A DNA stretch of 46,151 bases, from IMG/VR virus record IMGVR_UViG_2861079508_000006. The stretch is one strand, 5' to 3'. Numbering within the stretch: position 1 is the stretch's first letter; each line of letters begins with the position of its first letter. This stretch comes from a virus (taxonomy: Duplodnaviria > Heunggongvirae > Uroviricota > Caudoviricetes). A program made the translations under genes and the position numbers. This document shows, piece after piece, positions 26,625 through 41,778 of this stretch. The notes under the pieces were generated by a model. The model saw only the letters and a program-made list of their open reading frames with translations, was not told the DNA's origin and did not search any database.

Positions 26625-27118
26625 TGTTTCCCCCACAAACAGACTTCACGCTCAATCTCACGGCGAGTCATCAGTCCTTTCCATTGATTACCGCCAGCGT
26701 ATGTCCAGCGCCGTAGCTGATCACATGCGCCTTTAATATCACCCTGGTTTATTTTGCGAAGAAGCGTCGATGTTCTGAAATTGCCAGCACCCACGTTGTA
26801 GACGAACGAGTAAAGAGCGCCGCGCGTTGTTTCCGGTATATCGACTTTGATGTACCGGTTAATTTGTCTGGCGACAGTGGCAAGGTCTTTATTCAGGAGG
26901 GCTTTGCACTCTGCTTCGGTATACGTTTTACCGGGAATGATGTCTTTTCCTGTATGCCCGTAACATACAGTCCATACACCAACTATGTCTTTGTAAGGAT
27001 TATGTCTCACACCTTCCAGACCATCGTTACCACTTGGGCCAGTGATTAACACAGATGCTATAGCAATAGCCCCGCCACCAATAGCAGCAGCAACAGCTTT
27101 TCGTAATGATGGAGGCAT
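26621..27118 (-). CDS. rrrD: endolysin (phage-21-type lysozyme with N-terminal signal-anchor)
   Basis: 165-aa ORF with a hydrophobic N-terminus and lysozyme-like core; matches recalled DLP12 RrrD. Confidence 0.85.
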
Positions 27119-37297: not shown

Positions 37298-37843
37298 TCA
37301 TATTGCCCCCAGCATGGTGGTAACCATCGCCATTAATGGACCAGCCAGATCCGGGTCCACACGAAACATCGACACAATACCTTCACTCATTTCCTTCAGT
37401 TTCTGGTGGCGTGGTGCGTTGAGAATGACCGCCTGCTTTGCCTCACAGAGTTCCTTTTCCATTTCAGCCAGCCGAGCCATGAAGCTATCCTGCTCAACCA
37501 GGTGGCCGCGATATTCCAGCGGTAGTACCGCCAGAATTGCCGGGGTCAGTTCACGCACGTTATTTCGGTATTTTTCAGAATCGAATTTGTTATCGAGGAA
37601 GCGGAACAGCTTCTGGCGTGCACGGCTGACATCATCAGGGAAATCGATGGTGCCGCCGCCCTGCTCCCGATACTCATTCACAATGAGTGCGGCAACAACA
37701 TCCTGATTATCTGCAGCCGACCACGCGCGAACGGCATCACGGATTTTTTCGTGGCCTGGCACCTGTTTTATTTGAGAACGATTTATCACCGCAGTCGGGC
37801 TAAATCCGCTAGTCTGTTGGTATGTAAGTGGTTGCATAGTCAT
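37298..37843 (-). CDS. early regulatory protein in the cII position (not lambda cII)
   Basis: 181-aa ORF between the cro-like gene and O; unlike the 97-aa lambda CII; function unknown. Confidence 0.45.
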   Translation of the reverse strand: MTMQPLTYQQTSGFSPTAVINRSQIKQVPGHEKIRDAVRAWSAADNQDVVAALIVNEYREQGGGTIDFPDDVSRARQKLFRFLDNKFDSEKYRNNVRELTPAILAVLPLEYRGHLVEQDSFMARLAEMEKELCEAKQAVILNAPRHQKLKEMSEGIVSMFRVDPDLAGPLMAMVTTMLGAI

Positions 37844-37867
37844 TGCCTTATCAGTTAACGCCGCAGT

Positions 37868-38101
37868 TTAGGCGGCAGAATTACTCGCGTTAATCAATGG
37901 TGCAAGGTCGGGACGAATATCTGCTGGTTTAATCTTTCCACCAGTGGCTGAGACAATTTTCATTACATAGCGGGCATCAATTCCGCCACCGTGTAGCCAA
38001 CGCCAAACAGTGGGCTGGGCTACACCGCATAGATCTGCCAGTCGTTTTTGACTACCTGTAATACTGATTGCGAGTTGAATGGTTTGATTTGTCATTATCA
38101 A
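37868..38101 (-). CDS. cro: Cro-like HTH repressor
   Basis: 77-aa ORF divergent from cI with an HTH-like segment (SQKRLADLCGVAQPTVWRW). Confidence 0.7.
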   Translation of the reverse strand: MIMTNQTIQLAISITGSQKRLADLCGVAQPTVWRWLHGGGIDARYVMKIVSATGGKIKPADIRPDLAPLINASNSAA

Positions 38102-38205
38102 TTCCTATTGGTATTACAATGAATGGATAATAGCAATGCGTATTAATCCAATCAATAGCAAAACGTGTTTTGACCATCAATACGCAAGCGTATAAATTAA
38201 AACTT
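38102..38205. promoter_or_regulatory. OR-like operator/promoter region between cro and cI
   Basis: Divergent intergenic region with repeated CAATAGCAA / CTATTGG motifs and the palindrome ATACGCaaGCGTAT (38180-38193). Confidence 0.5.
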
Positions 38206-38898
38206 ATGAAAAAAGAAACTCTTGCTGATCGCTTAAACCTAGCGATGGAACAATCTGGAATGTCTCAAGGCGCTCTTGCAAAGGCGTCTGGCGTAGCTCA
38301 ACCCACAATCTGGAGACTGACAAGCGGCAACGCACGCGGCTCAACAAAAATTGTTGAAATAGCTAATGCATTGGGTGTTCGAACAGAGTGGCTCTCATCA
38401 GGCATAGGCCCGATGAGAAATGACGGTCAACAATCAGGGAAGCCTGCTGTCAACCATTCCAAATACTTCAAAATTGACGTTCTTGATATAGAAGTCAGTG
38501 CTGGGCCGGGTGTCATCAACCGTGAGTTTGTAGAAGTCCTACGCTCGGTTGAGTACTCGTTTGACGATGCTCGTCACATGTTCGATGGCAGGAAGGCAGA
38601 AAATATCCGCATCATTAACGTACGCGGTGACAGCATGTCAGGAACGATCGAACCAGGTGATCTTCTGTTCGTTGATATCACTGTTAAATCTTTCGACGGT
38701 GATGGTATCTATGCGTTTCTGTACGACGACACAGCCCATGTAAAGCGCCTGCAAATGATGAAGGATAAGCTGCTGGTTATCTCTGATAACAAGAGCTACT
38801 CACCGTGGGACCCGATCGAAAAAGACGAAATGAATCGGGTATTTATATTTGGGAAAGTTATTGGGAGCATGCCACAGACATATAGAAAACATGGGTAG
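38206..38898 (+). CDS. cI: CI-type repressor (HTH_XRE plus S24 LexA-like autopeptidase)
   Basis: N-terminal HTH (SQGALAKASGVAQPTIWRL) and C-terminal S24 region with GDSM serine and a downstream Lys. Start placed at MKKETL; the ORF opens at 38170. Confidence 0.85.
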   Translation: MKKETLADRLNLAMEQSGMSQGALAKASGVAQPTIWRLTSGNARGSTKIVEIANALGVRTEWLSSGIGPMRNDGQQSGKPAVNHSKYFKIDVLDIEVSAGPGVINREFVEVLRSVEYSFDDARHMFDGRKAENIRIINVRGDSMSGTIEPGDLLFVDITVKSFDGDGIYAFLYDDTAHVKRLQMMKDKLLVISDNKSYSPWDPIEKDEMNRVFIFGKVIGSMPQTYRKHG

Positions 38899-39004
38899 AT
38901 TATTAATGACAGATTTCATCAAGATAACCAGATGATGTTTTGGTGAGACATGCTGACATCCTCATAATTTATAGAATGGATGTTTCAAGCAGAGCTTAAG
39001 GTAT

Positions 39005-40612
39005 ATGGATATGTCAAAAAAAAATTTTGAATTCAAAAATTACCCAATAGTCTTTATTGGCTCAGGCATTTCAAAAAGATATTTAGAGAACTACCCAACG
39101 TGGGAAGAGCTATTAAACGAGTATTGGAAAATAACAAATCCCACAAATGATTTCTATAGTTATCTTTTAACAATAAAAGAATCACATAAAAATAACAGTG
39201 ATAATGATATCGATCATAAGATTTATACAGAGGCAGCAAGTAAAATTGAAAATGATTACAATCTATTGTTTAGGACTGGCAAATTAAAATTAAATGGACT
39301 AGATGCCAAGAGGGTTTTTAGTGAAGATATTTCACCATTTAAATACGCCATATGCCAAAGATTTTCTAATAACACAATCAGAAAGGATGTAAATCTTGAT
39401 GAATTAGCATCATTTAAAACATTAATAAAAAAGGCCAAGATAATCATCACTACAAATTATGATGCTTTCATAGAAAATTTACTTCAAGAGCAAAATGTAA
39501 CTCCAAAACTCTATATTGGAAATAATGGTTTTTTCGAAGATACTATTGGCTGGAGTGAGTTATACAAAATACATGGTGATATAAAGGATCCACACTCAAT
39601 AATCATAAATAAAGATGATTACGAAAAATATGACAACAAATCTATACTCATTAGTGCCAAGATACTATCTAACATGATTAAAAATCCAATAGTTTTTCTT
39701 GGATATTCTTTAACTGACAGGAATGTAAAGAAACTTCTTTCTGATTTTTCCTCACAACTACCTAGAGAAGATGGTCGAAAATCAGCTGAAAGAATAATTT
39801 TGATTGAATATAAAGAGAATGAACAGGAAGTAGTACCAAAACAGATTACCGATCAACAGCTACAAATTACATATACATCTGTTAAAACAGATAACTATAA
39901 ACAGATCTATGATGAGATCAGTGCTGTTGATGAAGGGCTCTCACCTTATGATGTTTTAAGGTATCAAAGAGCCATTAAAACACTTATCATTAATGAGGGT
40001 GAAAAAGGGCACTTAGATACTCTATTGGTTTCACCTTCTGACTTAGACAGACTTGAAGAAAGTGTTAAACAAGGAAAAAATTTAGTTGTTGCTCTAGGCG
40101 ATAAAAAGTATGTATTCACACAAGTTAAAGAAATAAATTATCTTGAAGACTACTTATTTAATAAAAATGAAATATCTAATAAATTAGCCATAGATTTCAT
40201 ATTAGGTTCAGTAAACTCATTACAACTTCCATTTTCAAAAACTATAACCTCATGTAATTTGAAAGAGTTAAGTTTGCCAGCTAAATATGTGTTAAAACTA
40301 AATCAACGCATTGAACGCCACGGAAAACTAGGCGACTTGCTCAATAAAATCACCTTAGATAAAATCAATGCAAATAAAATTTACACCAACATCAAAGATA
40401 TAAAGGATGCAAAGTTCAAAAAGTACAAAGAATTGTCTATAGTCATTAAGAACATAAAAAATATCCCCAAAGAGGAGATTGAAGATTATGTTAAAAAAGA
40501 AGCGTTTGTTCAATTCAAGGCATGCGACGTTGACAATTTAAAAACCCAGTATAGGAAACTATTTCTTGCCTACGACTTGTTGATTCATGGAAATGTTGAA
40601 AAGATAAATTAA
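39005..40612 (+). CDS. candidate SIR2-like (DHS-like NAD-binding) protein with unrecognised C-terminal domain; putative lysogen-expressed anti-phage effector
   Basis: 535-aa ORF, strongly AT-rich relative to flanks, co-directional with cI. Motifs: VFIGSGIS (aa 16-23), TTNYD (149-153), HGD (190-192), FLGYSLTD (231-238). A likely alternative start is the ATG at 39011, which has an AAGG about 9 nt upstream. Confidence 0.55.
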   Translation: MDMSKKNFEFKNYPIVFIGSGISKRYLENYPTWEELLNEYWKITNPTNDFYSYLLTIKESHKNNSDNDIDHKIYTEAASKIENDYNLLFRTGKLKLNGLDAKRVFSEDISPFKYAICQRFSNNTIRKDVNLDELASFKTLIKKAKIIITTNYDAFIENLLQEQNVTPKLYIGNNGFFEDTIGWSELYKIHGDIKDPHSIIINKDDYEKYDNKSILISAKILSNMIKNPIVFLGYSLTDRNVKKLLSDFSSQLPREDGRKSAERIILIEYKENEQEVVPKQITDQQLQITYTSVKTDNYKQIYDEISAVDEGLSPYDVLRYQRAIKTLIINEGEKGHLDTLLVSPSDLDRLEESVKQGKNLVVALGDKKYVFTQVKEINYLEDYLFNKNEISNKLAIDFILGSVNSLQLPFSKTITSCNLKELSLPAKYVLKLNQRIERHGKLGDLLNKITLDKINANKIYTNIKDIKDAKFKKYKELSIVIKNIKNIPKEEIEDYVKKEAFVQFKACDVDNLKTQYRKLFLAYDLLIHGNVEKIN

Positions 40613-40617
40613 ATAAA

Positions 40618-40644
40618 CGCCCCGTACAAAGCGATGGCGGGGCT
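40618..40644 (+). terminator. putative terminator hairpin after the SIR2-like gene
   Basis: gccccg / cggggc stem with a 13-nt loop; the following sequence is only weakly T-rich. Confidence 0.3.
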
Positions 40645-40885
40645 AATAAGTCATTTATGTATCATTTAACAACTGACTAAAAAAATACACATAAGAACTC
40701 AGACTACCAATATTCGATTAAATTTGCTGCCAACCTACCGAGCTCACCACAACCCGATGCCCCTCTGTCACGAGGCACATTAAAGCTGTACAAATTTCAG
40801 CCACACCAATAAGTCTTCATACTCTTTTTTATAAAAATTCATTTAATTATCAATCAGAACAAGTATATCAAACATTATCAATACT

Positions 40886-40935
40886 AATTGCTATTGACTA
40901 CACCAATAGCTATTGCTATTGTCATGCTATTGCAT
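40886..40935. promoter_or_regulatory. OL-like operator cluster (candidate pL)
   Basis: Four copies of GCTATTG within about 45 bp (40890, 40909, 40915, 40926); the same heptamer occurs in the OR region. Confidence 0.45.
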
Positions 40936-41116
40936 CGATGTTGGTATCACAAAATTTATAACTTCACCGTTGCGATGACCGCTTAGATCCGCAGCTTGAA
41001 TTTCAGCAGGCTCCGGGGAGTGCGAGGGGTGAAGCGGACGCGTGAACGTCGGTGTGACCAGCTGAAATCAACTCAACACTTCATACCTCAGTCGCTTCAA
41101 CGAGGCGACTTAGTTA

Positions 41117-41406
41117 TGACAACCGGCGGCCATCCACCGCCTGAATACGCGCAGAAGTCTCTATATGTTCAGCAGCCCAGCTTACGGGCAGGAGTTTTTA
41201 TGGTTCATCAACATTACGGAACGCAGACCGTTAATCGAGGTGCGGTCATGCCAGGAATGCTGGTCAAACACAAAGATGGTACCTGGACTGCATCAGCTAA
41301 TTTACGCGGACGGCTATATCTGCATCGCGGCATCGAGCGCACTTATACCCGTGATTTGCTCGTGGAAGTTTTTCTCGACGGACGCGGTAACGGCCTGAAT
41401 CACTAA
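41117..41406 (+). CDS. hypothetical early protein
   Basis: ORF 40996..41406; the internal ATG at 41117 has a GAGG about 10 nt upstream. Not recognised; coding status uncertain. Confidence 0.3.
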
Positions 41407-41481
41407 TCCCCTTTCCTGTTTTCCTAATCAGCCTGGCATTTCGCGGGCGATATTTTCACAGCCATTTTCAGGAGTTCAGCC

Positions 41482-41778
41482 ATGAACGCTTATTACATTC
41501 AGGATCGTCTTGAGGCTCAGAGCTGGGCGCGTCACTACCAGCAGATCGCCCGTGAAGAGAAAGAGGCAGAACTGGCAGACGACATGGAAAAAGGTCTGCC
41601 CCAGCACCTGTTTGAATCACTCTGCATCGATCATTTGCAACGTCACGGGGCCAGCAAAAAAGCCATTACCCGTGCGTTTGATGACGATGTTGAGTTTCAG
41701 GAGCGCATGGCAGAACACATCCGGTACATGGTTGAAACCATTGCTCACCACCAGGTTGATATTGATTCAGAGGTATAA
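41482..41778 (+). CDS. gam: RecBCD inhibitor Gam (short form)
   Basis: 98-aa ORF matching the recalled lambda Gam short form ([21 protein letters not shown]...). Confidence 0.9.

Follow-up and report, generated by a model that had tools for sequence, protein, structure and literature searches.

The slot between cI and N or the left operator (OL) is known from earlier work, with rexAB as an example, to be a mosaic hotspot in which defence genes are found (Degnan et al. 2007, as cited in PMC8585504 and PMC7067206). In the Salmonella phage BTP1, cI and bstA form one operon with a single start site in RNA-seq, with reads spanning the gap between the two genes and with similar transcripts-per-million values across 17 conditions (PMC7067206); the word 'operator' is absent from the main text of the BTP1 literature that was searched. 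In CP-933P of E. coli O157:H7, the cargo genes paaA2-parE2 are co-transcribed with the gene for the repressor PaaR2, and 5' RACE (rapid amplification of cDNA ends) has shown the repressor mRNA to be leaderless (PMC8630535). Here, we analyse a stretch of 46,151 nucleotides from a virus of the Caudoviricetes (IMG/VR record IMGVR_UViG_2861079508_000006; the whole stretch is referred to as 'the window'), in which a repressor gene (cI) and a gene for a SIR2-domain protein lie between two clusters of related short repeats (positions 38,102 to 40,935). This region very probably represents the immunity module of a complete lambdoid prophage of the DLP12 family, with cI dyads at the right operator (OR) and at OL, and with the SIR2 gene most likely belonging to the cI operon. 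An earlier note on this DNA had proposed just such a lambda-like layout, which is supported by the presence of the same dyad on both sides of cI, its co-variation with the N-terminal domain of cI, the fixed position of OL and the overlap of the sites with predicted promoters.

The unit common to both clusters is an 18-bp dyad, CAATA-N8-TATTG, with the ideal form CAATAGC-N4-GCTATTG, i.e. the heptamer GCTATTG, on which the earlier note had focused, is its extended half-site. Exact matches to CAATA-N8-TATTG occur only twice in 46 kb, both in OL, where repeat analysis likewise yielded 18-bp palindromes at 40879-40896 and 40904-40921 that are 25 bp apart and inverted repeats of one another. With up to two mismatches, nine of the 32 matches in the window are located inside the two clusters, with five in OR (including the overlapping registers 38093 and 38099). 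For a symmetrized position weight matrix (PWM), 21 training sites were taken from other phages and genera, with the window and the SIR2-cargo loci excluded. The eight positions of the window that this matrix ranks highest (40904, 40879, 38128, 38099, 40898, 38153, 38178 and 38093, in this order) are all in the clusters, with scores of 14.4-25.3 at the two clusters versus 11.8 for the best hit elsewhere in the 46 kb; shuffled windows contain on average 0.65 hits scoring 11.8 or more. The genes and sites concerned are the following:

38099..38116, fourth operator-like dyad CAATTCCTATTGGTATTA over the cro leader and Shine-Dalgarno sequence (PWM score 21.5, fourth in the window)
38128..38145, OR1-like dyad TAATAGCAATGCGTATTA, overlapping the predicted -10 element of pR (PWM score 22.7)
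38153..38170, OR2-like dyad CAATAGCAAAACGTGTTT, overlapping the -35 element of pR and abutting the -35 element of pRM (PWM score 15.9)
38178..38195, OR3-like dyad CAATACGCAAGCGTATAA, which holds the palindrome pointed out in the earlier note and lies within the predicted pRM (PWM score 14.4)
38206..38898, plus strand, cI repressor gene (230 amino acids, N-terminal helix-turn-helix (HTH) domain and C-terminal S24 LexA-like autoprotease domain according to Pfam)
39005..40612, plus strand, gene for the SIR2-domain protein (535 amino acids; Pfam SIR2_2, E=1.3e-23)
40879..40896, distal OL dyad CAATACTAATTGCTATTG, perfect and an exact match, overlapping the -35 element of pL (PWM score 24.0)
40904..40921, proximal OL dyad CAATAGCTATTGCTATTG, a perfect 7-4-7 palindrome over the spacer and -10 element of pL (PWM score 25.3, the best in the window)

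Within OR, the OR2-like dyad is in 25-bp register with its neighbours and is nearly invariant in relatives including BTP1. From the cro-proximal to the cI-proximal register site, PWM scores drop from 22.7 via 15.9 to 14.4, an order that matches the OR1 > OR2 > OR3 logic of lambda, with the proviso that scores are not affinities. The dyad at 38099 is spaced 29 bp rather than 25 bp from the next site, and relatives in Kluyvera, Citrobacter and Raoultella retain its half-sites, with variation in its spacer. On the OL side, inspection by eye of the window and of BTP1 revealed no third dyad in 25-bp register on either side of the pair; the OL allele termed A has a weak site, CAAAATTAATTCTTTTTG, 50 bp upstream.

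What speaks most clearly for an operator function is the behaviour of the dyads across related loci. We compared 81 loci with at least 98% identical cI, comprising three phage records, 77 IMG/VR contigs and the window. The dyad pair is found downstream of cI in every one of these loci that has enough sequence, at distances from cI to OL that vary between 659 and 1982 bp across 20 clusters of cargo genes. Where the leader anchor TTCACCGTTGCG (position 40963 in the window) was matched exactly, the OL pair sits 83 bp before it. Phages 4A7, Perceval and PhiR30_1 have the cro-OR-cI segment of the window, other cargo and a differently sequenced OL, which again features two dyads 25 bp apart. In 47 OL and 31 OR alleles, polymorphism is located in the N8 spacers and between the sites, with the 5-bp cores being almost invariant, and among the 15 sister loci with SIR2 cargo the OL half-sites are invariant and the spacer alone varies.

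Beyond this close group, the dyad motif follows the N-terminal domain of cI and not its overall identity. Repressors that share this domain are encoded by Salmonella BTP1, by Citrobacter and Raoultella and by two Kluyvera prophages, with sites at -106 or -107, -78, -53 and -28 from the cI ATG. The Kluyvera georgiana repressor is only 56% identical overall, with 67 of 70 residues matching in the N-terminal domain, and its locus has kept the sites at -106, -78, -53 and -28 as well as the OL pair. Such a pair is present in all domain-sharing relatives but one, a Kluyvera intermedia locus with none within 5 kb downstream. Conversely, repressors that are 75-82% identical overall, with merely about 37 of 70 matching residues in the N-terminal domain, go without CAATA-N8-TATTG sites and with a different dyad, AACAAC-N4-GTTGTT, which has the same geometry, is found at both OR and OL of this second immunity type and does not occur in OR or OL of the window. 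That dyad and N-terminal domain co-vary in this reciprocal manner, with the cargo being variable, is the best reason to think that cI reads both clusters. The cI gene itself is a mosaic, since from 38342 to its stop codon it shows about 89% DNA identity to the repressor gene of a different immunity type, to which the segment 37839-38341, i.e. cro, OR and the N-terminal domain of cI, is unrelated; the module that determines immunity specificity is therefore smaller than the cI gene.

The earlier note had also called for -35 and -10 elements that overlap the repeats, and three predicted promoters were indeed found to be interlocked with the dyads:

38155-38127, minus strand, predicted pR, TTGATT (38155-38150)-17-TATTAT (38132-38127)
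38170-38198, plus strand, predicted pRM, TTGACC (38170-38175)-17-TAAATT (38193-38198)
40894..40922, plus strand, predicted pL, TTGACT-17-TATTGT with a TG upstream of the -10 element and a start at about 40929

In pL, the -35 element is built from the end of the distal dyad and the -10 element from the end of the proximal dyad; in pR, the -10 element overlaps the site at 38128 and the -35 element that at 38153; and in pRM, the -35 element abuts the site at 38153, with the spacer being filled by the site at 38178. A pL beginning near 40940 had been suggested before: the promoter is there by prediction, with its start lying about 10 bp away from that position, at about 40929. Operator and promoter are interlocked at pL in this way also in BTP1, in the second immunity type and in OL alleles A and C, and in PhiR30_1 both pL and pRM are at the same relative positions.

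In the mechanism that we propose, a cI dimer would bind to the 18-bp CAATA-N8-TATTG dyads with their extended half-site CAATAGC. At OR, the register dyads at 38128, 38153 and 38178 together with that at 38099 would overlap the divergent promoters pR and pRM, such that occupation of the two cro-proximal register sites would switch off cro and place the repressor beside the -35 element of pRM, with the weakest OR site, inside pRM, allowing for negative autoregulation. At OL, the dyads at 40879 and 40904 would cover the -35 and -10 elements of pL and thereby keep kil, gam, bet and exo silent in the lysogen. There, pRM would most likely generate a leaderless cI-SIR2 operon transcript, i.e. the repressed prophage would express a probable NAD+-consuming anti-phage protein.

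For cI itself, a leaderless or nearly leaderless mRNA is likely because only 7 nt separate the end of the pRM -10 element from the cI ATG (38206) and a Shine-Dalgarno sequence cannot be discerned; pRM transcription would then start at the ATG. We infer that SIR2 is co-transcribed with cI since the 106-bp gap between the two genes exhibits neither a terminator-like hairpin nor a plus-strand promoter match at scan threshold, since the cargo cassettes of all 20 clusters are co-oriented with cI and since cI and bstA of BTP1 constitute an operon with a single start. Alternatively, SIR2 could be transcribed mainly from a promoter of its own in the 106-bp gap or in the cassette, in which case its expression would be uncoupled from pRM; a precedent is the pLIT promoter of lambda rexB. 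The SIR2 cassette is foreign, with a guanine-plus-cytosine (GC) content of about 0.30 compared with about 0.47 for cI, and may have come with signals of its own; by eye, the gap shows a weak TTGGTG-17-CATAAT match (8 of 12 positions), and AT-rich DNA yields many promoter-like sites, several of which were called inside the SIR2 gene. We nevertheless consider this alternative unlikely, because the scan gave no plus-strand match at threshold anywhere between 38198 and 39131, no terminator separates cI from SIR2, all 20 cassettes point in the same direction as cI and the slot cargo of BTP1 has no start site of its own (PMC7067206).

Several points weigh against our overall interpretation or limit it. 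The OR2 and OR3 sequences used for training the PWM are homologous to those of the window, so that full independence is restricted to the results for OL and the OR1-like site, and the OR2-like and OR3-like sites, which carry two core mismatches each, could owe their conservation to the overlap with pRM alone. The promoter scan of the region returned nine sites versus 11.9 expected by chance, and the assignments of pL, pR and pRM thus rest on position and conservation and not on score. How a cI-SIR2 transcript would stop before kil is not explained by the one hairpin found there:

40619..40643, plus strand, GC-rich hairpin directly after the SIR2 stop codon, seen by folding, a possible weak terminator of the cI-SIR2 transcript

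This hairpin has no U tract on the plus strand; the terminator scan made a call here on the minus strand only (40633-40618), and neither scan nor folding revealed a canonical intrinsic terminator on the plus strand after SIR2. The cargos of PhiR30_1, BTP1, Kosakonia and Morganella do end in canonical terminators (see also PMC8585504). At about 40727-40769, the sequence is rich in C and poor in G (GC skew of -0.23 to -0.32) and might, as a matter of speculation, provide a Rho entry site that ends the transcript. Furthermore, PDC-S25, the family of the SIR2 protein, is a candidate defence family and not a tested one, and we infer actual binding, the order of site occupancy, promoter use, co-transcription and defence function from sequence.

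A second alternative concerns the repeats at 40879-40932: some protein other than cI might recognize them, be it Cro only or a host factor, or they might have been left behind by the insertion of a cassette or by replication slippage in AT-rich DNA. It gains some appeal from the local structure around the predicted pL start:

40914..40935, plus strand, 11-bp tandem duplication TGCTATTGTCA/TGCTATTGCAT (repeat analysis)

This duplication, of the slippage type, yields an orphan half-site, is present in all 15 SIR2-cargo loci and is found in none of the other OL alleles. More generally, the OL/pL allele of the window (40620-40962, with two perfect dyads and the -35 element TTGACT) occurs solely with the SIR2 cassette (15 of 15 loci), 18 other cargo clusters share a different OL allele, and one cluster (L080) has a third; the SIR2 cassette has apparently been exchanged together with OL and the first approximately 33 nt of the pL transcript. 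That one of the five OL heptamers belongs to the duplication, that another is polymorphic and that the whole allele arrived with the cargo would be compatible with repeats that are not operators. Such repeats, however, would hardly recur as the same dyad in three OL alleles and next to 20 cargos that are unrelated to each other, at a constant 83 bp ahead of the leader wherever the anchor matched, nor switch exactly when the N-terminal domain of cI switches, nor combine invariant half-site cores with variable spacers, nor embed a conserved -35/-10 pair. We therefore regard this alternative as very improbable and retain the interpretation of the repeats as operators read by cI.

The heptamer counts have to be seen in this light. 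On both strands of the window, GCTATTG occurs 11 times, compared with 6.4 +/- 2.4 in shuffled sequences, 7 of 100 of which reach 11 copies; the total is thus unremarkable, and it is the clustering that stands out. The four plus-strand copies reported before for 40886..40935 are all present (40890, 40909, 40915 and 40926), and a fifth on the minus strand (40904) can be added, such that the enrichment sought in the earlier note consists in five copies packed into the 43 bp of 40890-40932, where about 0.006 would be expected. That this packing is a chance feature of AT-rich sequence, as the ordinary total of 11 copies might suggest, has a negligible probability when set against the five copies in 43 bp, the two exact 18-bp dyads that are the sole ones in 46 kb and the conservation of the sites across genera. 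Three of the five are half-sites of the two perfect dyads; the copy at 40909 is dyad spacer and reads GCCATTG in most sister loci, and that at 40926 is the second unit of the duplication. In the cro-cI gap, the motifs named before are present, including the palindrome ATACGCAAGCGTAT at 38180-38193 and CCTATTGG at 38104-38111, but instead of several heptamers there is a single exact one, at 38153-38159 on the minus strand (CAATAGCAA). The CTATTGG in OR is the variable spacer of the 38099 site and is replaced by CCTAAAAG or CCTATGAG in relatives, i.e. it is not a half-site and its resemblance is coincidental. Thus, the idea of a half-site shared by the two clusters holds in the form of the extended half-site, whereas an arrangement of four direct heptamers as the unit does not, with the actual unit being the 18-bp dyad. 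The exact heptamer was rejected as the functional unit, as OR has one copy only, one OL copy is polymorphic and another is a duplication. Also rejected was a third operator cluster formed by the heptamers at 27064 and 27079, which are 15 bp apart and arise by coincidence from the coding sequence for the N-terminal membrane segment, rich in Ala, Ile and Gly, of a lysozyme gene.

The cargo gene (RefSeq start at 39011, giving 533 amino acids) encodes a full-length member of the PADLOC family PDC-S25 (PDLC04967; E=2e-235, 528 of 528 model positions). Its sole Pfam match is SIR2_2, and its PADLOC matches are PDC-S25, ThsA and other SIR2-containing families; NCBIfam has no family for it. TTNYD and HGD motifs align with those of ThsA (6LHX), with an Asn (N149) that is invariant and a His (H188) that is found in at least 90% of 33 family members; from what is known about ThsA, we take these to be the catalytic Asn and His. 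The AlphaFold model (pLDDT, the predicted local distance difference test score, of 80) gave Foldseek matches to the SIR2 domains of DSR2, ThsA and KomC with a probability of 1.00, and no clear structural match for its C-terminal helical half. Judged by motifs and model, this is probably a NADase-like, NAD+-consuming anti-phage protein. An identity with ThsA of Thoeris was rejected because the match is limited to the SIR2 core (residues 147-288), a SLOG domain and a TIR partner are missing, and the neighbours are cI and OL/kil; likewise, the cargo is not RexAB, to which it is a positional analogue only, as it matches nothing but SIR2_2 and SIR2 families.

With a GC content of about 30% (0.27-0.34) compared with about 47% for cI, the SIR2 gene is acquired DNA. 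Together with its right flank it is found, at a coverage of at least 80%, in 165 of 5426 complete E. coli genomes. In Morganella and Kosakonia prophages, the gene that directly follows the HTH-S24 repressor gene of the second type encodes a homologue with 62-74% identity and is bracketed by second-type dyads, and in Streptococcus prophages more distant homologues (42-44% identical) are found one to three genes after a CI-like repressor.

The slot between cI and OL is of wider use, as at least 20 different cargo cassettes occupy it among the 81 loci, all with one repressor type, and all substantial open reading frames of all 20 cargo clusters are co-oriented with cI. Five cassettes match PADLOC candidate families (PDC-M63, M11, M66, S42 and S25), the cassette of L071 shows partial matches to known defence proteins of the capP/RmrA type, and the scanned proteins of L006, L017, L027, L037, L062, L065, L066 and L069 match nothing in PADLOC. 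Tentatively, the slot in the DLP12/BTP1-type repressor group could be seen as a large and mostly uncharacterized hotspot of defence genes that are driven by pRM and expressed in lysogens, with SIR2 (PDC-S25) acting as a single-gene, NAD+-depleting abortive-infection system that recurs downstream of repressors from Enterobacterales to Streptococcus, with an OL/pL allele of its own.

The window as a whole (46 kb) is a coordinate-for-coordinate match to a complete lambdoid E. coli prophage of the DLP12 family between appY and intD (NZ_CP042896). It is a full-length relative of the K-12 cryptic prophage DLP12 with intact head, tail, replication and immunity genes, sharing with it intD, emrE, ybcK-ybcO, rusA, quuD, essD, rrrD, nohD and the appY flank. 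Around the switch, the order of genes is ren, P, O, a YdaT-type cII-like gene and a YdaS-type cro, all on the minus strand, followed by cI and SIR2 on the plus strand; after SIR2, a 590-bp non-coding stretch precedes kil (41200-41406), gam, bet and exo, again on the plus strand. The following flanking features complete the module:

37298-37843, minus strand, YdaT-type cII-like gene
37868..38095, minus strand, cro-type gene (75 amino acids, YdaS family HTH; Pfam YdaS_toxin, E=9.8e-15)
40963..41199, plus strand, conserved leader of the early-left operon, followed by kil/gam/bet/exo; right edge of the exchangeable immunity module

The cro-type gene, which also has a weak P22_Cro match and identical coordinates in RefSeq, is the one with which the rightward early operon begins (leftward in the present orientation). 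Genes that Pfam annotates as 'YdaS toxin' and 'YdaT toxin' (37298-38095) thus occupy the cro and cII positions; for CP-933P, YdaS has been shown to be a Cro analogue, and the YdaS/YdaT families have been argued to be Cro and cII analogues rather than toxin-antitoxin pairs (PMC8630535). The cI protein (Pfam Peptidase_S24, E=1.3e-18, and HTH_3, E=1.8e-6) displays an Ala-Gly site (VSAGPG) and a GDSM serine motif, which predicts a repressor of the RecA-stimulated, self-cleaving type. On the other side of the module, homology begins exactly at 40963, with 40963-41500 being 97.6-99.3% identical in phages of both immunity types, and Kil is identified by NCBIfam PRK11354 (E=1.8e-17). Between pL and kil (40929-41199) there is no gene for an N-like antiterminator. 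The pL leader (270 nt) is partly similar to phi80 and HK225, and the 23 records that it matches do not include HK022. We rejected the presence of a put-like RNA, or of any other strong structure, in this leader (40929-41210), as it folds no better than shuffled sequences (z = -0.9) and has no Rfam match. An Rfam scan of 37700-41600 produced nothing relevant, with one chance snoRNA match at E=0.94.

Overall, this is a known kind of regulatory module, which conceptually adds nothing new. What our analysis contributes specifically is an operator sequence for repressors of this type, the identity of the cargo as SIR2/PDC-S25 and a count of the alternative cassettes. The operator sequence and the accompanying promoter map can be put to the test for a repressor type that is present with SIR2 cargo in 165 of 5426 complete E. 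coli genomes, and the same type of repressor is found in BTP1, a phage of epidemic Salmonella ST313. Moreover, the SIR2 candidate sits where a silent prophage would express its cargo, which makes PDC-S25 and the other slot cassettes worth testing for anti-phage activity.

Compared with lambda, details of which are general knowledge, the locus likewise has divergent cI and cro genes, an OR with several sites that overlaps pR and pRM, another operator cluster beyond cI that covers pL, an accessory gene (here a putative defence gene) that is placed between cI and OL and points in the direction of cI, and a repressor of the self-cleaving S24 type. The site spacing of about 24-25 bp is also shared, as is the leaderless cI mRNA, which is a fact in lambda and a prediction here. 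In contrast, the lambda operators are 17 bp long and bear no sequence similarity to the 18-bp CAATA-N8-TATTG of the window, which furthermore differs in having two OL sites rather than three, an extra fourth site on the OR side over the cro leader that is without counterpart in lambda, SIR2 instead of RexAB as cargo, YdaS/YdaT-type cro and cII genes and no N gene after pL. Among proteins with a SIR2 domain, DSR2 is about twice as long as the one encoded here.

CP-933P shares with the window the positions of YdaS as Cro and YdaT as cII and the number of four OR sites, which are 18-bp palindromes of a different consensus in CP-933P and dyads here (PMC8630535). It differs by its unrelated repressor PaaR2, its toxin-antitoxin cargo and its being a cryptic prophage. 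A further described system is that of BTP1, a homoimmune-looking relative by sequence, whose cI is 85% identical to that of the window with an identical HTH stretch, and which has the same dyads at -78 and -53 from the cI ATG, a near-identical pRM/cI start and an OL pair 25 bp apart. In this phage, the slot is also filled by a defence gene, with BstA in place of SIR2, but, unlike in the window, N follows pL, the backbone is P22-like and the flanks of OL are different.

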